The notes beneath the pieces are model-generated. The model was not told the origin of the DNA. It did no database searches and saw only the letters and a list, made by a program, of their open reading frames with translations. From contig CAVUUR010000007.1 in NCBI GenBank assembly GCA_963744715.1, positions 64,001-128,000 on the forward strand: a DNA stretch of 64,000 bases. The letters are read 5' to 3'. The translations under genes and the position numbers were made by a program. The stretch is from an uncultured bacterium (lineage in GTDB: Bacteria; Babelota; Babeliae; Babelales; JACPOV01). Shown here in pieces: positions 45,099-61,090 of this stretch (positions within the stretch are counted from its first letter, which is position 1; each line of letters begins with the position of its first letter).

Positions 45099-46490
45099 TT
45101 ATCCTATTACTTCATTATTAGCAATTGCTTTACTATACCTTTTGCCTAATAAAATTGCAGTTACCGTCCAAATAGCTACAACAACGGCAAAAAACACTGC
45201 GTGTAAAGACATGAAGAACGCGGAACCTAATAATTCAGCGAAAATATTAAACCCAGATGCTGTGGCGCGTGCCAATTTTGCACCAAAAGCATCAATCCAT
45301 GATTTTGACTTAAATTTCATTTCTTTAACCGTAGGAATATATAAACTTTCACGTACTGGTTGAGCAAATGCATAATTAATAGATTTAAATAAAGTATATA
45401 CTACTGACAATGAAAACCAATCATACGCCAACATACAATAGAGCAATAAAAGACCGGTTGAAAGGGGAACTAGTAATAAACACTTTTCTTCACCCAATTT
45501 TTTTAATAATGCTCGCGTACCTATGAGCGAAATCAAAAACCCAGATAAATGTAAAAAGAAGGATTGTTGAAACAGAAAACAACTTAAATCAGAAATGTTA
45601 TTAGAAGATGAGTGCGCAACACCCAATCTTTGATAACTTAACACTTTATTGACCATCTCATAGAAAAACAACATGCCAAAAATGCCTAAAATATAGGGCC
45701 ATTTTATCATCATAGAAAGTCCTGAAAAAACTCCCATAGGCTGCTGGGATTCGGTACTTTCTTCACTGCGTTGTTTTTCAAATTGATATACGGCTTCATA
45801 ACCATGCAAATTTTTTCCTGGTACCTTTTTAATAAGCATGTAAATCATAAAAGGTACAAAAAACGCTAATAACGAGAAGAAAATGAGCAAAATCTGGTGA
45901 TTCGTGACATCAGAAAAAAAACGTGCCCCGCCAAATTTAGGCGTTAATAAAATCCATGCCAATCCAGCACTTAACATACCACCTATTTTGGACATAGCTA
46001 CCATAAGACCATAATTATTTTTAGCAGCTTCTGGACTATTTATAGAGTTAGCAAAAGCCCAAAAAACGCTGACAACAAAAGGGGTAAAGCCTTCAACAAA
46101 AAAATAAAAAAACCACCCAAATAAACGAACAGGGCTTGTCTGCGTATTATGTAAACCGATTACCGGGTCACCGAGCAAATAGGCACAGGCAAAACCAACA
46201 ATACTATAAAAAAAGCTGTAAATATACAGCAACTGATAGCGCCTAACTTTATCAACAAGAAATGAATAAAAAAGCACCGCGGGTATTAAAACAACAAATT
46301 CTAATAAATTAGCCCAAGGAATATATTCTCTACCAACAATGGCGATAAAAAAGGAATCTCTAAGGTCTCTAATTATCGTGTATGCACCAATAACCAAAAA
46401 AAAGGTAGCCGATAATAATATTAATTTTAAATGTTCACCTTTGTCAGCCACTTTAAAGGCAGTAAGTTTTCGTGCAAAATTAAAACTCAT
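45099..46490 (-). CDS. NTT/Tlc family nucleotide (ATP/ADP) translocase
   Basis: About 12 TMs; LRDS, FWAFAN, INYAF.QP..E.LYIPT.KE.KFK.K.WID. Confidence 0.88.
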   Translation of the reverse strand: MSFNFARKLTAFKVADKGEHLKLILLSATFFLVIGAYTIIRDLRDSFFIAIVGREYIPWANLLEFVVLIPAVLFYSFLVDKVRRYQLLYIYSFFYSIVGFACAYLLGDPVIGLHNTQTSPVRLFGWFFYFFVEGFTPFVVSVFWAFANSINSPEAAKNNYGLMVAMSKIGGMLSAGLAWILLTPKFGGARFFSDVTNHQILLIFFSLLAFFVPFMIYMLIKKVPGKNLHGYEAVYQFEKQRSEESTESQQPMGVFSGLSMMIKWPYILGIFGMLFFYEMVNKVLSYQRLGVAHSSSNNISDLSCFLFQQSFFLHLSGFLISLIGTRALLKKLGEEKCLLLVPLSTGLLLLYCMLAYDWFSLSVVYTLFKSINYAFAQPVRESLYIPTVKEMKFKSKSWIDAFGAKLARATASGFNIFAELLGSAFFMSLHAVFFAVVVAIWTVTAILLGKRYSKAIANNEVIG

Positions 46491-46550
46491 ATAGCTTCCT
46501 ATCAATTCTTATGCAATATGCCTAGCAAATATTAATTTTGGTGTATCTAC

Positions 46551-46623: not shown

Positions 46624-48036
46624 TTAAACTACGATACGATTTTCGTCAACCGCTTTATTAAATTTCTTTCCTAGAAACAAGGTTATGGGGAACCAAACGC
46701 CAATGATTATTAATGAAGCAACCGTACAGGTAGTAATAAATTTATTCAATCCTGCTACAGCGCCATAATTAGCCATATAGGTTTTACGCCACAAATTCAC
46801 GGTTGATCCTAACGCTTTTGAACCACGTGAACCGTACGTTTCAATAAACGCTTGCGATTTATATTTAGCTTCTTTACTGGTTGGAATATACAGTTGCTTC
46901 ATGGTTGGCTGATTTAAACCATAATTGATAGCCTTTGAAAGCACCATAATCCAGAATAAAACACTGATGAAAGGATATGCTTTAAAGGTCAATACAACAC
47001 ATGCTACTAGTATTGGTAAGGATGCTAATGCAGCACCAAGCCCTAAGTATTTTTGAATATTATTAATTTTCAACGAAATACTTAAAAGAGAAATAAGCCC
47101 TACCCATATACCGTAGTAACCTAGGTACACGGTTGCATCATGCGGATTAGGGTATACATCGTTAACAAAGGTCTTAAAATTGAAGTCGAGCACCGTAATA
47201 ATTACCTCATACGAAGTAATTATGGCAAAAATACCAAGCAAATATGAAGAAGAAAGAATTAACCACAAGCCTTCAAAAAAGCCTGGTTCTTCATGATTTT
47301 TTTTATCATTTTTACCGTGATATCCTACTAACTGCTCCTTAGGGACTACTGAAACAAAATAACGAATTAACGCAATGATAACAAACATCATAGCAGCAAC
47401 AAAAACAACTGATCCTGCTAATACTGATGCGCTCGTTCTAGCAGCTTCTGCCGATAATTCTCCTTCAGGGCCAACCTCTATATGAAATAATTTTGTCATA
47501 ATCAAGATTAATGACAATGGGCCAAAAATGTTTCCTAATTGTCCGCCAAAAGCTACAACTGGATAACCACGCTCAGCTGATTCTGGTAACGTTGTATCAC
47601 CAACAAATGCCCAAAATAATGCAACGATGAGTGAACCAAAACTTTCAACGTACACATACCATGCCCATCCCCACCATCTATAAAAATTTGCAGGCCCAGA
47701 ACTTAATCCAAGTGATGGACTCCAGATAAGAAAGGCGAATAGCAATGCTATTGATCCGTAGATGGTACATAATGCATAAAACATTTTTTCACGAGGAAAA
47801 ATGTCTACCAACTTAGAATAAATTAAAATAAGAGGGAAAACGACAATCATCGAAAGAAATTTTGCTTGAGGAATATAGTTAGCCCCCACAACGTTCATAA
47901 ATACTGAATCTTTAAGTGGACGCAAAAACCAGTACGATCCAATTACTAATCCAAATATAAATGATAAAAGTCCAAACTTTTTAAGTTCTCCTTCTTTAAA
48001 ATCTCCCCACCACAAGCGAGTAATTTTGGCAAACAT
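46624..48036 (-). CDS. NTT/Tlc family nucleotide (ATP/ADP) translocase
   Basis: ELKKF, LRPLKDS, ESFGSL...LFWAF, YGLNQP...LYIPT.KE.KYK.QA.IE..GSR..KA. Confidence 0.9.
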   Translation of the reverse strand: MFAKITRLWWGDFKEGELKKFGLLSFIFGLVIGSYWFLRPLKDSVFMNVVGANYIPQAKFLSMIVVFPLILIYSKLVDIFPREKMFYALCTIYGSIALLFAFLIWSPSLGLSSGPANFYRWWGWAWYVYVESFGSLIVALFWAFVGDTTLPESAERGYPVVAFGGQLGNIFGPLSLILIMTKLFHIEVGPEGELSAEAARTSASVLAGSVVFVAAMMFVIIALIRYFVSVVPKEQLVGYHGKNDKKNHEEPGFFEGLWLILSSSYLLGIFAIITSYEVIITVLDFNFKTFVNDVYPNPHDATVYLGYYGIWVGLISLLSISLKINNIQKYLGLGAALASLPILVACVVLTFKAYPFISVLFWIMVLSKAINYGLNQPTMKQLYIPTSKEAKYKSQAFIETYGSRGSKALGSTVNLWRKTYMANYGAVAGLNKFITTCTVASLIIIGVWFPITLFLGKKFNKAVDENRIVV

Positions 48037-48469: not shown

Positions 48470-50921
48470 ATGACAGCAGATGAAATAAAACATCAACAAG
48501 AGGATTCACTTTCTGAAAAAAATAGCCTTTTGTTGCCACTTCTTCCGTTAAAAAATATTATTATTTTGCCAAAGAGCATACATCCCATTATTGTTGGAAG
48601 AGCTATTTCAATCAAAGCAGTTGAATATGCCTTAAATCATGATAAATCTATTTTTATTTCAACGCAAAAAGATCAAAAAGTAGAAAATCCAACCGAACAA
48701 GATGTTTTTGAATACGGCACCCGCGCTACTATTTTACAGATGATGCGCATGCCAAATGGATCATTAAAAATTTTAGTTGAAGGCATTTGCCGAGCAAAAA
48801 TAATCAAGGCTGAACAAATCAATGGTTTTTTGGCAGTGCATTGTCATGATTTACCAACTATAAATTTAGAAAAAACCATAGAAATAGAAGCATTATGGCG
48901 TCATCTAAAAAAGCTATATGAAGCTTACACAAAACTTAATGAAAAAGTGCCATTAGATCTTATGACCATGGCAAAAAATGTTGAAGACATGGATGCTATA
49001 GCCGATACCTTGGCAGTGCATTTAAATCTTTCTTTTGACGAACGCCAAGACATTTTAGAAACCAATGATTTACAAGAACGGCTTATTAAACTTAATAAAT
49101 TTTTGTCTAAAGAAATCGAAATTCTTGAAACGGAACAGCGCATCAAGGGAAGAATTCAAACGCAAGTTGAAAAAAGCCAACGCGAATATTATTTGACTGA
49201 ACAAATTAAAGCTATTCAAAAAGAATTAGGCCGCGAAGATCAACAAAGCAGAAATTCTACAAATACGCGCTAAATTAAAAACATTAGGTCTTTCACCAGA
49301 AGCTGCTGAAAAAGTTGATAAAGAGCTTCGCCGCTTGAACAAATGCCCCCGCTTTCATCAGAAGCGGTTGTTTCTCGCCATTATATTGATTGGATTATTT
49401 CATTGCCATGGAAAAAACAAAGTAAAGACACCATCAGTCTTCCGCAAGCAGAAAAAATTCTTAATAAAAAACATGCGGGGCTTATAAAAGCCTAAAGAAC
49501 GTATTATCGAGTTTTTAGCAGCAAAAAAATTTTCTAAAACAATTGAACGATCTCCTATTATTTGCCTTGTTGGCCCTCCTGGTGTTGGGAAAACATCACT
49601 CGCACATTCTATTGCAGAAAGTTTAGGTCGAGAATTTGTACGAATTTCATTGGTGGTATTCGTGATGAAGCTGAAGTACGAGGACATCGAAGAACATATA
49701 TCGGCGCACTTCCTGGCAAAATTATTCAAGCAATGAGAAAAGCAAAAACGCTCAATCCGGTCATTTTCCTTGATGAAATAGATAAGATCTCGCGTGATGT
49801 ACATGGCGATCCGGCAGCAGCATTACTTGAAGTACTTGATCCGGAACAAAATAAAGCATTCGTTGATCATTTTTTAGAAATTGAATACAATCTCTCAAAA
49901 GTAATGTTTATAGCTACGGCAAATATGATTGAAGGGATTCCTTTTCCACTTTTTGATCGAATGGAAATTATCACGCTGCCTGGTTATACGGAAGCATGAA
50001 AAGGTAGACATTGGCCACCAATTTCTTATTGCCTAAAAATTTACAAGAATATGGCCTAACTTCAAGACAATTCAAAATTTCAAATGACATTATTGCAGAT
50101 AATTGTTTCACACTACACCAAAGAAGCTGGCGTCCGCCAACTTGAACGTATCATTGCGAAATTAATGCGTAAAACTATTCAAGTTTTATTAAATGATAAA
50201 GAAGTAAAAAGTGTTACTATCACTCATGACCTATTAAAAGAATGGCTTGGTCAACCTAAATTTAAAAAAACAGTCCTTGATCAAACCAAAGAGCGCATTG
50301 GATTAGCAACAGGACTTGCTTGGACAGAATTTGGTGGCGATGTACTTGAAATTGAAGCAACGGTGATTATCAGGCAAAGGCGCGCTTAACCTTAACTGGT
50401 CAACTTGGTGAAGTCATGCAAGAATCTGCTCACGCAGCTTTAAGTTATATACGTTCACGCGCAACAGAGCTTAGGACTTTCCAATGGCGTTTTATGCTTC
50501 AAAAGATATTCATATTCACATTCCTGAAGGAGCTACACCAAAAGATGGTCCTTCTGCAGGCATAACCATGTGCGTTGCTCTCGTTTCAGCACTTACAAAA
50601 AATCCAACGTTACCTGATGTTGCTATGACTGGAGAACTTACCTTGCGGGGAAGAGTTCTTTCTATCGGGGGACTCAAAGAAAAACTTCTTGCCGCCCAAC
50701 AACATGATATTAAAACAGTGTTGGTACCAAAAGAAAACGCCGATGACGTCGATGAAATCTTAAAAGAAATTAAGATCAATCTTAATATTGTTTTTGTTGA
50801 TAATATGGATGAGGTATTAAAACAGGCATTGTCACACGATCCATTCAAAAAAAATAATAGTAAAATAGCGCATGAAAAAAAACGCAAAGAACTGAGTAAT
50901 AAGAAAAAATCACGTAAATAA
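48470..50921 (+). CDS. lon: Lon protease (multiple apparent frameshift errors)
   Basis: LON N-domain, [36 protein letters not shown]. Confidence 0.95.
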
Positions 50922-57682: not shown

Positions 57683-59113
57683 ATGATTAATCAAAACAAA
57701 CAAACCCAGCCACAACAAAAAACCGTTGTTCCGGGAAATCAAAGAAACTACAATGAAGTAGTTGAGTTTCTTGACGCACGTTGGCAGTTAAAACTTAATG
57801 ACAAGGAATTGCATAATATTAAAGCTTTGGATAAGGCCCTTGGCAACATTTCTAAGCAAATACCAACTATTTTAGTTGGTGGAACCAATGGAAAAGGTTT
57901 AACTATTAATTTTGCCGCTACTCTTCTCAAAGAAGAAGGCTTAAAAGTTGGTGCTTTATATTCTCCGCATATTCTTACGTACAACGAACGCTTAACCATC
58001 AATAATGAAACAATTTCTAATAAAGCGTTTACTGAAGTTGCTAATGAAGTAATTAATGTTGCCGAATCTAATAACATTAAAGCACATTCTCTTGAATTAT
58101 TAATTATGATGGGATTGCTCTATTTCAAACAAAGCGGTGCTGATCTTGCTATATTAGAAATAACTGATGGTACCGTATATGAACCTTTAGCTATTTTTAG
58201 CCCTAATATTATCGCGATAACTCGTGTTGTTGATAATAATACCGTAGTGCCAAACCCGGCTGTTATGGAAAAAACCATTAAAGAAATCCTTACTATAGCC
58301 AAAAAGAATACCTACGTTGTTTCTGCTGATCAAAGCAAGGCAAACTTGCAAATTATGCTTGAAGAAACAAAGAAACATGATGGTGTTTGGTCTATGCCAA
58401 TTCGTAAATTAGCACAATTAAGCTATCCTTTTGAGCAATTACACGGACGTTGTGCTGCACTTGCTGAACGAATTTGCCAAATTTATATCAATCATGTTGC
58501 TAATAAAAATGCGGTTGTAGTAGAACATAGTTTATTAGCAAAACAACCGGGAAAACGTGGTCGTCCAACGCTCAAACAAAAACAACAAGACGCCATGAAC
58601 CCTAAGAAAACCGTTGATCAATTTTGGAAAGAAATTACAACATCGTTGCCAGCGCATTTCCAAGTTCTTGATAAAGAAAAACCAACCATATTATTGGATA
58701 ATGCAAGCAATATCGATGCATTAGAAAATCTTCTTTTAGGGATTAGATTATTACATTATCGACGTCCATTAAAAGGATTGACCTTCATTTTTGGTTGCGA
58801 TAAAAATACTATAAATACTGAAGAATTTTTACGACTCCTTCGTTATTTTTCAAAGAAGAACTCAGGAAATATTATTTTCTGTCCTATTAACAATAATATT
58901 ACTGGCATCAAAACTGAATCATGGGATGTTGAACAAATTACCAATGATGTAAAAAGCTTGAAAATTAAAGCAAAATCAGCCAAAAACTTTGAAGATGCAT
59001 TTGACCAAGCTAAAAAATCAAATGTTGATGAACGTTATGGTTTGATTGTTATTTCAGGTTCAAAGTCAATTATTTCTGAATACTGGCATCTTAAAGGGAT
59101 AAAAAAACTATAA
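57683..59113 (+). CDS. Divergent FolC-like Mur-ligase-fold protein
   Basis: GGTNGKG, YSPH...NER..IN, D.AILE, ILLDNASN, V.SGS. Confidence 0.7.
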   Translation: MINQNKQTQPQQKTVVPGNQRNYNEVVEFLDARWQLKLNDKELHNIKALDKALGNISKQIPTILVGGTNGKGLTINFAATLLKEEGLKVGALYSPHILTYNERLTINNETISNKAFTEVANEVINVAESNNIKAHSLELLIMMGLLYFKQSGADLAILEITDGTVYEPLAIFSPNIIAITRVVDNNTVVPNPAVMEKTIKEILTIAKKNTYVVSADQSKANLQIMLEETKKHDGVWSMPIRKLAQLSYPFEQLHGRCAALAERICQIYINHVANKNAVVVEHSLLAKQPGKRGRPTLKQKQQDAMNPKKTVDQFWKEITTSLPAHFQVLDKEKPTILLDNASNIDALENLLLGIRLLHYRRPLKGLTFIFGCDKNTINTEEFLRLLRYFSKKNSGNIIFCPINNNITGIKTESWDVEQITNDVKSLKIKAKSAKNFEDAFDQAKKSNVDERYGLIVISGSKSIISEYWHLKGIKKL

Positions 59114-59389
59114 TTGATTATGATTAGTTTTTTCTCTTTTGTTTTATCAGTATTAGTTGGTATTACAAGTGGTAGTATTTATGGGCTTTTGTTTTTGCGA
59201 ACAAAAGCCCTTCTCTTTTTAACGCAGAAATCATCAATATTTTTATCATACCTGATTCCGATAGTACGGTTTATAGTAATAAGTTGTTTTTTTCTCTATA
59301 TATTGCGAATCTCTTCTATTCATTCTATACTCGTACTAATAATCTTTTTAAGTACATTTTGGTTTATACTAATAAAAAAGGTCCTCTAA
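59114..59389 (+). CDS. ATP synthase accessory membrane protein (AtpI/AtpR-like)
   Basis: Three TMs, immediately upstream of atpB. Confidence 0.55.
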   Translation: MIMISFFSFVLSVLVGITSGSIYGLLFLRTKALLFLTQKSSIFLSYLIPIVRFIVISCFFLYILRISSIHSILVLIIFLSTFWFILIKKVL

Positions 59390-59390
59390 C

Positions 59391-60131
59391 ATGAAATCTT
59401 TTGAGGGATTAGAACAAACTACCTGGAATCCCTTAAGTATTTTTGGACTGCATTATGAATTAGCAGAAATTAATATATCAACCATCATTAATACATGGGT
59501 AGTTCTAGGTATATTAATTACCTTATTAGTCCTGTGTCGAATCCTGATGCGCAACAGACGGGGGATTATCCACTATCTGGTAACGTCAAGTATCGTATCA
59601 TTTATGGATTTAGTAACACAGACCTTAGGATCTTTTATATATCCCTATTTCGCCTTAGTTCTTTCATTATTTATTTTTATTTTATTATGTAATTGGGCCA
59701 GCATCATTCCTTGGATGTCAGAACCAACTAAAGATCTTAATACAACCTTGGCGCTCGGACTAATCTCATTTTTTTATAAAGAAGTCGAAGGCATACGAGT
59801 ACGTGGATTTAAAAATTATTTAAAAGAATTTTTACAACCTTTTTTCATAATGTTTCCCGTTAACATTATTGGTCATTTCTCTAAAATAATTTCCATATCA
59901 TTTCGTTTATTTGGTAATATTTTTGGCGGATCAGTAATTATGGAACTGTATCAACATGCAATGGCCAGCTCTATACTGGCACAACTAGTAGGACTTTTTT
60001 CAGGAATTAATTTTCTTATTATTCTTTTTTTTGGTGTTTTTGAAGGCCTTATTCAAGCATTTGTTTTTGCTATGCTTACCTTAACCTATTTAACTATAGC
60101 TGTTTATGATGAACATGCAGGAGAACTATAG
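59391..60131 (+). CDS. atpB: F0 ATP synthase subunit a
   Basis: PTKDLNTTLAL, SFRLFGNI, IQAFVFAMLT..Y. Confidence 0.95.
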   Translation: MKSFEGLEQTTWNPLSIFGLHYELAEINISTIINTWVVLGILITLLVLCRILMRNRRGIIHYLVTSSIVSFMDLVTQTLGSFIYPYFALVLSLFIFILLCNWASIIPWMSEPTKDLNTTLALGLISFFYKEVEGIRVRGFKNYLKEFLQPFFIMFPVNIIGHFSKIISISFRLFGNIFGGSVIMELYQHAMASSILAQLVGLFSGINFLIILFFGVFEGLIQAFVFAMLTLTYLTIAVYDEHAGEL

Positions 60132-60133
60132 CA

Positions 60134-61090
60134 ATGACTGAATATATACATCTTTTTAATTATATCAGTATTGCCGGCATCGTAGGATGTACCACACTGG
60201 GCGTTGGCATAGGCAGTGGAAAATCAAGTTTTGCTGCATTACAAGCAATGAATATACAACCAAGTGCAAAACAAGAAATAACAAAAGCTACCATTATTGG
60301 ATTAGCATTAATTGAAACCGCAGCAATATTAGCATTGATCATTATTTTTTTAATATTTCCTTGGCAAGTTTCTTCTAATGAATATCAAGCACTTGCTAAA
60401 GTTGGCATAGCCTGTGCAATAGGCATAACAGGATTCATGTCGGGATTAGTTTCGGCGTATCCTCTTTCACAAGCATGTTACGCATTAGCACGCCAACCAT
60501 TTTTTAGTCAAAAAATTATAAATTTAATGCTCATAACGCAATCAATTATACAAACACCCCTCATCTTTGGATTTCTTGTTTCTCTGGCCATTATAGGGCA
60601 ATTAGAATCTATCAACACACTTACACAAAGCCTTATGGTTATTGCCAGCGGCCTTGCCATAGGAGTTGGTTCAATAGGCCCGATTATTGGGTTAGCAAAA
60701 TTTGCCCAAACCGCATGCCAAAGTATTAGTATTAATAAAAAAGCATATAATCAACTTATACCATTTACCTTTATGAGCCAGGCAATCATAGAAACACCTA
60801 TTATTTTTGCCTTACTTATTTCTCTCATTATAATAGGAAGTTTACATCGCACTAATATAACATTATTAACGGCTGTTCAGGCATTAGCAGCATCGCTATG
60901 CATAGGAATTGGCACTATTTCTCCGGGATTAAGCTCAAGCAAGACCGCCTCAAATGCTTGCAAACAAATCGCCCTTAATCCGCAACACTACAGAAAAATT
61001 TCTCAGATAAGTCTCTTTGGACAAGGCCTTATTGATGCTGCCGCTGTGTATGCTTTACTCATTTCACTTTTTATAGTATTGCTTAAATAA
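60134..61090 (+). CDS. atpE: F0 subunit c with four fused hairpins (8 TM)
   Basis: Four roughly 80-aa c repeats: GLALIETA, QSIIQTP, QAIIETP, QGLIDAA; (R/I)QP loops. Confidence 0.88.
   Translation: MTEYIHLFNYISIAGIVGCTTLGVGIGSGKSSFAALQAMNIQPSAKQEITKATIIGLALIETAAILALIIIFLIFPWQVSSNEYQALAKVGIACAIGITGFMSGLVSAYPLSQACYALARQPFFSQKIINLMLITQSIIQTPLIFGFLVSLAIIGQLESINTLTQSLMVIASGLAIGVGSIGPIIGLAKFAQTACQSISINKKAYNQLIPFTFMSQAIIETPIIFALLISLIIIGSLHRTNITLLTAVQALAASLCIGIGTISPGLSSSKTASNACKQIALNPQHYRKISQISLFGQGLIDAAAVYALLISLFIVLLK

Follow-up and report, generated by a model that had tools for sequence, protein, structure and literature searches.

The locus

The window, a stretch of 64,000 nucleotides from a parasitic bacterium of the Dependentiae/Babelota, contains a gene (atpE1) encoding a 318 aa F-type subunit c with four hairpins (Table 1). 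The stop of atpB and the start of atpE1 are 3 bases apart. A Pfam scan found four stretches of PF00137 (ATP-synt_C) in the protein (E 8e-28), the number expected in the initial annotation, and the four c-like repeats with E, Q, E and D at the carboxylate position that it had described directly after atpB are confirmed. The fused gene directly follows atpB in all 80 loci found in relatives, and the Mur-ligase-domain gene, which we take to be FolC-like, precedes atpI-atpB-atpE1 in 73 of the 80. These loci were recovered by an alignment scan of genome contigs; a single-protein scan returned none. The 91 aa protein encoded before atpB has no Pfam or NCBIfam match, and its Atlas score of 0.83 to an ATP-synt_I cluster is a lead only. 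A promoter scan was uninformative, with 27 sites against 25 expected. A terminator-like hairpin (12 pairs and a T run) lies inside the atpI-like gene at window 59183-59210 (+); such hairpins numbered 6 in the scanned region against 3.2 expected. The NTTs reported earlier in this window are also present as two NTT-like genes. Both lie above the Pfam TLC cut-off and below that of TIGR00769, and there are three NTT-like genes in the whole genome.

Table 1. Positions of the subunit c genes and of neighbouring features. Coordinates refer to the window unless a contig is given.
Feature	Position	Strand	Remarks
NTT (TLC)-like gene, second	45099..46505	-	
NTT (TLC) nucleotide translocase-like gene	46624..48036	-	ATP-import context
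Mur-ligase-domain gene	57683..59113	+	
91 aa hydrophobic protein, probable AtpI/AtpR	59114..59389	+	Conserved position before atpB
atpB, F-type subunit a	59391..60131	+	Sole one found in the genome
atpE1, four-hairpin F-type subunit c, 318 aa	60134..61090	+	Pfam, NCBIfam, AlphaFold2 model
Hairpin 1	60137..60355	+	E61, codon 60314-60316; inner ligand column S28; Tyr column lost (L66)
Hairpin 2	60380..60610	+	Q140, codon 60551-60553, no carboxylate; QTP..F
Hairpin 3	60620..60847	+	E220, codon 60791-60793; ETP..F; Na+ ligand set incomplete
Hairpin 4	60863..61081	+	D301, codon 61034-61036; Y306
atpE, canonical single-hairpin subunit c, 80 aa	G000:C6:25366-25608	-	Fifth PF00137 match in the whole-genome search

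Two peculiarities of the assembly were recorded. Genes that by their motifs are presumably Rho-like, SecF-like and Lon-like are in pieces (G000:C3:16290-18710; window 50084-50921), which suggests either assembly frameshifts or decaying genes. The small contigs G000:C1 (GC 0.61) and C8 (GC 0.46) differ from the 35-37% GC found elsewhere, and are possibly contamination or rRNA.

The fused subunit c

F-type c models of NCBIfam score up to 104 bits against the fused protein, versus 34 for V-type K. An AlphaFold2 model of the chain (114 aligned sequences; mean pLDDT 96.7, pTM 0.93) is wholly helical, and the predicted helices can be read as four hairpins. The carboxylate column is occupied by E61, Q140, E220 and D301, within the motifs LIETA, IIQTP, IIETP and LIDAA respectively. 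Pairwise identity among the four hairpins is 26-35%. This divergence, together with a single open frame of 314-351 aa in 80/80 relatives' loci, led us to reject an assembly artefact. Contigs of run X1, which extend over window positions 59000-60334 and hence into hairpin 1 only, are 95-99% identical and free of indels. We rejected a recent 2x2 duplication on the same divergence, and because hairpins 1+3 and 2+4 do not pair and the hairpin positions are each monophyletic. In a quick tree of 66 columns the latter held across the 14 genomes sampled, and therefore the four-hairpin fusion is older than the sampled radiation. Longer c fusions (581-2000 aa) gave no hit at E<=0.001 in what was a weak search.

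The fused subunit is real and phylum-wide. A total of 522 homologs were found, the named ones being Dependentiae/Babeliales; records labelled, for example, 'uncultured Pseudomonadota' group with Dependentiae homologs on the atpB tree. Among the 120 listed of these 522, residues at the carboxylate position of hairpins 1 to 4 were E118 D2, Q119 E1, E120 and D109 E11. The 81 genome-derived copies comprised EQED (55), EQEE (13), EMED (6), DQED (4) and other patterns (3). In 123 divergent full-length representatives (150 listed minus fragments and 10 evident non-Babelota or over-long rows) the patterns were EQED (66), EQEE (21), EEEE (16) and other (20), with EEED in 3. The E/Q/E/D pattern of the initial annotation is thus conserved, being that of 55/81 genome-derived copies, but it is not universal, as the EEEE and EEED representatives (16 and 3 of 123) demonstrate.

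Particular residues are more strictly kept. E220 is present in 81/81 copies and D/E301 in 80/81, the Tyr of the Y306 column occurs in 81/81 with no other hairpin keeping a Tyr, and an RQP loop is near-invariant in hairpin 2 alone (78/81). The inner ligand column of hairpin 1 is Q or E in 64/81 relatives. In the clade of this genome both this ligand (S28) and the Thr of hairpin 4 (A302) have been lost. On the atpB tree the two losses coincide in a single event; residue 28 was also lost by itself, about five further times. We considered the joint loss as proof of a contact from hairpin 4 to hairpin 1; having a single origin, it is not decisive.

A second subunit c gene

The initial annotation started from the premise that the fused protein is the sole subunit c. 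This premise fails, since the genome also encodes an 80 aa monomeric atpE (Table 1). Its motif, Q30..E63-T-S-x-x-Y68, is a complete Na+ motif as defined in the accessible text of the ProAD paper (PMC11738941), and likewise in that of the Fusobacterium structure paper (PMC3692424). The monomer is first in the gene order atpE-b'-b-delta-alpha. The two c genes lie on separate contigs here (fused C7, monomer C6), and no monomer match was seen in the flanks of the fused gene in 80/80 relatives' loci. A monomer nevertheless accompanies the fused gene in 49/50 tested relatives, taken from the 80 loci. Residue E63 is kept in 50/50, mean pairwise identity is 63% for the monomer versus 43-58% for the fused hairpins, and the monomer loop is KYP in 41/50, as opposed to the RQP of fused hairpin 2. 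In most relatives the gene immediately upstream of the monomer is deoxynucleoside-kinase-like (L001:1795-2529 (-), most of L086-L134).

Across 251 genomes of the phylum, PF00137 matches (counted by hand, and with five read as 4+1) numbered five in 208, four in 34, fewer in 9 and more in none. Among the 43 genomes with fewer than five, 37 do have the monomer. Of the six monomer-less genomes, four were looked at more closely. Alpha is missing as well from three of these and in the fourth lies 1.4 kb from the start of a contig, so assembly gaps account for the absent monomers of these four. The remaining two are 64% and 70% complete.

The rest of the enzyme is F-type. Subunit a, with its essential Arg, b', b, delta, alpha, beta, gamma and epsilon were all found in the genome, and a stand-alone Fo module is therefore rejected. 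Arg172 of subunit a is kept in 78/78. Of 151 genomes searched for subunit a, 149 gave a single match, one gave two and one gave none. This genome has one each of a, gamma, alpha and beta and a 79 aa epsilon, so that two kinds of c would serve one enzyme. About 5 kb downstream of the intact atpC (epsilon) gene there is a partial copy (G000:C2:9923-10157), 93% identical with a one-base gap; no second match was seen in 58 relatives.

Ion sites

Under the ProAD rule, as given in the accessible text of PMC11738941, a site is formed by a hairpin's own Q/E and E with [ST][STQ]xxY of the previous hairpin, and thus the Tyr of hairpin 4 would serve the next hairpin in the ring. We scored 50 genome-matched pairs of fused and monomeric proteins by the strict rule and then by a relaxed one (+2 residue). 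Monomer-monomer sites agreed with the Na+ rule in 32/50 (strict) and 43/50 (relaxed), hairpin 1 after a monomer in 21/50 and 33/50, hairpin 1 after hairpin 4 in 9/50 and 36/50, and a monomer after hairpin 4 in 10/50 and 37/50. Hairpins 2, 3 and 4 agreed with the strict rule in 0/50 each. The grammar suggests that the ends of the fused chain face neighbours, and by itself does not tell a monomer from a second fused chain. With S28 and A302 the fused chain of this genome would have no complete Na+ site of its own.

The motifs indicate that the enzyme is likely Na+-type. The coupling ion, which the initial annotation had left undecided, appears better resolved now that a monomer with the complete Q..E-T-S-x-x-Y motif is at hand. 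A membrane pyrophosphatase (G000:C6:174505-176649 (-)) has the pattern A12.46/G12.49/E6.53, by a residue numbering that we placed from known motifs and presume to be correct. Table 1 of PMC10897367 assigns this pattern to Na+ or Na+,H+ pumps, which lends support to the Na+ part of the reading. The same pyrophosphatase is called a proton pump in the TM6 comparative paper. Hairpins 3 and 4 have carboxylates without Na+ ligands, and the rotor may thus combine Na+ sites with H+ sites. The narrower proposal, in which the monomers of one rotor would bind Na+ while hairpins 3 and 4 of its fused chain would serve solely as H+ sites, is doubtful. The dual-ion case of Methanosarcina acetivorans has promiscuous sites, all of one kind.

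Direction of operation

In seven TM6 genomes Yeoh et al. found no electron transport chain, and they proposed that the ATP synthase holds a gradient through hydrolysis (PMC4776705); the accessible text of that paper does not mention subunit c. We found no match to COX1, the complex I 49-kDa subunit or the Rnf/Nqr families in this 86%-complete genome. Epsilon is 79 aa long here; 60 relatives were searched, and the 58 with a match have open frames of 79-123 aa. According to the accessible text of PMC9317440, such a short epsilon would be without the C-terminal helices that carry inhibition; the truncation occurs in many alpha-proteobacteria too, and hence is not specific to pumps. Taken together, the absence of respiratory-family matches, the NTT-like genes and the short epsilon make it likely that the enzyme works as a pump driven by ATP, and to this extent the ATP-hydrolysing pump of the initial annotation survives.

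The lowered ion/ATP ratio that it had predicted also survives, as an estimate. For every 3 ATP, a ring assumed to have 11 hairpins including one fused chain would present 10 carboxylates and no more than 8 Na+-motif sites. This would give 3.3 ions per ATP if all carboxylates count, or 2.7 for Na+-motif sites only, versus 3.7. Fewer ions per ATP would allow a steeper gradient per ATP.

Comparison with known rotors

The top PDB match of the fused protein is c1 of A. woodii (4BEM chain J; sequence E 5e-10, Foldseek E 3e-5), whose hairpins read ETS..F then QTT..Y. In A. woodii one c1 copy is found among nine monomers, a 9:1 mixed ring (accessible text of PMC9171764 and PMC8904574), and the mixed ring needs its own AtpI (PMC8904574, likewise). 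As in Babelota, where the gene before atpB is a probable atpI, the fused c of A. woodii and Clostridium aceticum follows atpI-atpB and there is a separate Na+-motif monomer (accessible text of PMC7911925); in A. woodii c1 the first hairpin also has E-T and the second Q-T, and the Tyr is in the last hairpin only. The Babelota protein differs in having four hairpins rather than two and three carboxylates rather than one, two of the three carboxylate sites being without Na+ ligands. Its monomer is in another operon, whereas the c genes of described hybrids are linked, and its host is an ATP-importing parasite rather than an acetogen. Since it lacks two defining features, two hairpins and one operon, we do not class it as an A. 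woodii-type c1.

The K subunits of V/A enzymes (Enterococcus hirae NtpK, 2BL2; the 13-hairpin c of Methanopyrus kandleri) also have fused hairpins and lost sites, and Foldseek matched the fold of 2BL2 to two hairpins of the fused c. However, the fused c scores far higher with F-type models, and its partners (a, b', b, delta, alpha, gamma, beta and epsilon) are F-type. The three PF00006 matches in the genome are alpha, beta and the gene in pieces that we take to be Rho-like, and none is an A or B subunit of a V/A enzyme. In N-ATPases one operon holds all the genes in the order beta-epsilon-X-X-a-c-(b/delta)-alpha-gamma, and delta is either fused or missing (accessible text of PMC11738941), whereas the Babelota enzyme has a separate delta and four scattered loci, namely atpI-B-E1, atpE2-F'-F-H-A, atpG and atpD-C.

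In its accessible text, the literature searched describes no subunit c of Dependentiae and no four-hairpin F-type c, and reports no co-assembly for any four-hairpin c, although ProAD tables and 2026-preprint supplements may list such proteins. One preprint (10.64898/2026.10.01.756066) mentions 'several multi-hairpin structures' and, in the accessible part, does not name this phylum. Related papers, likewise accessible in part, concern multiple atpE copies in Desulfatiglandales (PMC13343851) and a c duplicate with a long extension in Alkaliphilus (PMC4154653); PMC3543383 belongs to the same literature.

Multi-hairpin subunits outside Babelota

A profile search retrieved F-type proteins of 3-5 hairpins from other bacteria, and a metagenome scan with seven of these outside proteins gave at least 520 loci, the best 80 of which (L135-L214) are described here. 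Some are cut by contig ends. They have 2 (8 loci), 3 (21), 4 (44), 5 (5) or 6 (2) hairpins. A monomeric atpE follows the multi-hairpin c directly in 64 of these best 80; 9 others stop at a contig edge and 7 have a monomer within about 1.5 kb. Named members are from Deltaproteobacteria/Thermodesulfobacteriota, Cloacimonadota and Cellulosilyticum. We found no paper describing this 2-6-hairpin family, which is known from database sequences alone. Three loci (L160, L212, L214) have a rearranged gene order, and in four (L146, L149, L177, L204) the usual carboxylates are apparently lacking or altered.

The family shares with Babelota the order atpB-multi-hairpin c, the succession E-x-A..F / QTP..F /.TP..F / last-hairpin Tyr, and a hairpin 2 with Ser at the inner column and an RQP loop. 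It differs in its adjacent monomer, in having mostly one carboxylate, and in its identity to the 318 aa protein (25-31%). The 44 four-hairpin proteins among the best 80 loci are EQQQ (26), EQQE (10), EQEQ (4) or other (4), and all 44 have the last-hairpin Tyr. Hairpins 2 and 4 of the outside proteins find their best match in the Babelota hairpins of the same number, with 1 and 3 ambiguous; the true hairpin order ranked second of 24 permutations, and the quick hairpin tree does not resolve the link. A common origin is plausible. The Babelota arrangement resembles an operon of the outside type that was split between its two c genes.

The profile search also listed two much longer proteins from other lineages. 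P0206 (968 aa, 12-member cluster) is an F-type c with 13 hairpin motifs and a Glu in each; its 91 Trp versus 45 Gly suggest that TGA=Gly (code 25, Gracilibacteria/Absconditabacteria-like) was read as Trp. It may be a whole F-type rotor in one chain, the bacterial counterpart of that in Methanopyrus kandleri. P0255 (1139 aa) is an A-type K from Asgard archaea (Promethearchaeota/Hodarchaeota) with at least 14 hairpin matches in one chain.

A probable hybrid ring and its alternatives

We think it fairly probable that the fused c makes up a minor part of a hybrid ring. The ATPase would be Na+-type and likely driven by ATP, its operon having been split between the c genes. This reading is favoured by the coexistence of fused c and monomer in this genome and in 49/50 relatives, and by the single subunit a (149/151 genomes). 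It is also favoured by the match to A. woodii c1, which has the same motif grammar and a known mixed ring, and by the monomer directly after the multi-hairpin c in 64 of the best 80 outside loci. Moreover, the Tyr is confined to hairpin 4 and no internal site agrees with the Na+ rule, while monomer-monomer sites do in 32/50 and monomer-hairpin 1 sites in 21/50.

In such an enzyme, host ATP would be imported via the NTTs and hydrolysed by an F1 without the epsilon C-terminal brake, and gamma-epsilon would turn the ring past Arg172 of subunit a. The fused chain would fill four adjacent positions among Na+-motif monomers, each monomer site carrying Na+. Position 2 of the chain would be empty, and positions 3 and 4 (in this clade also 1), with a carboxylate and no Na+ ligand set, would carry H+ or nothing. 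More weakly, as only hairpin 2 of the chain keeps the RQP loop, the fused chain may nucleate the ring and fix the register of gamma-epsilon docking.

Against a hybrid ring, the c genes are unlinked in Babelota, unlike those of described hybrids. Three of the four hairpins have carboxylates, two of them nearly invariant (E220 81/81, D/E301 80/81), and a ring of fused chains only could work. Under the relaxed rule the predicted hairpin 4-to-1 contact is as frequent (36/50) as that of monomer to hairpin 1 (33/50), and residues 28 and 302 were lost together in this clade as if serving one site. Lastly, the outside family is linked neither by the hairpin tree nor by a first-ranked hairpin order.

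Some of these points would suit two alternative homo-rings that share one subunit a and one F1 and replace each other according to condition or life stage. One would be a Na+ ring made of monomers; the other, mostly H+-type, would consist of three fused chains with 12 hairpins and 9 carboxylates in all. Unlinked genes would be separately regulable, the three carboxylates would have a use, the joint loss of 28 and 302 would fit a hairpin 4-to-1 contact, and in 19/123 divergent representatives, with EEEE or EEED, every hairpin carries a carboxylate. We nevertheless regard this arrangement as unlikely, given that the fused gene always follows the only atpB (80/80), that like-patterned outside proteins in the best 80 of 520 loci are mostly EQQQ and beside monomers, and that the joint loss was a single event.

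It is also quite unlikely that the fused chain serves chiefly as a template for assembly or as a structural insert (a ring nucleus, gamma-epsilon docking site or AtpI partner), with carboxylates that take no part in ion transport and a possible departure from the ring once this is mature. Its being encoded together with the atpI-like gene and atpB, the loss of internal Na+ ligands, the RQP loop of the empty hairpin (78/81, versus KYP in 41/50 monomers) and the dependence of the A. woodii mixed ring on its own AtpI (accessible text of PMC8904574) would all agree with such a role. However, E61, E220 and D/E301 are conserved phylum-wide, and so too the Q/E of hairpin 1 and the Tyr of hairpin 4, residues that would face neighbours in the finished ring.

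The rotor of the initial annotation, built from the fused chain alone as a multiple of four hairpins with at most three of four sites active and the monomer unused, is very improbable: the three carboxylates and the confidently predicted four-hairpin structure would allow it, but the monomer is intact, better conserved than the fused hairpins (63% versus 43-58% mean identity), invariant at E63 (50/50) and at the head of the b'-b-delta-alpha operon. That annotation had itself named a canonical monomeric atpE forming the ring as evidence against its model, and the gene now found comes close to this.

Implications

The survey of Brandt & Muller (2015) reportedly covered only operons with several c genes. 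A survey limited to operons with two c genes would miss the Babelota case, because here the c genes are unlinked. Hybrid F-type rotors are, in the accessible text of the literature searched, those with the two-hairpin c1 of acetogens. A hybrid ring in Babelota would add a four-hairpin version fixed across a phylum without a respiratory chain, with 2-6-hairpin relatives in several other phyla, and would correct the view that the Dependentiae rotor consists of fused chains only. These proteins would form a natural series for how many consecutive empty or foreign sites a rotor tolerates, and for how ion/ATP gearing may be tuned by fused inserts versus ring size. Should the doubtful two-ion proposal be true, one F-type ATPase would move both Na+ and H+ at a gene-fixed ratio, phylum-wide in ATP parasites.
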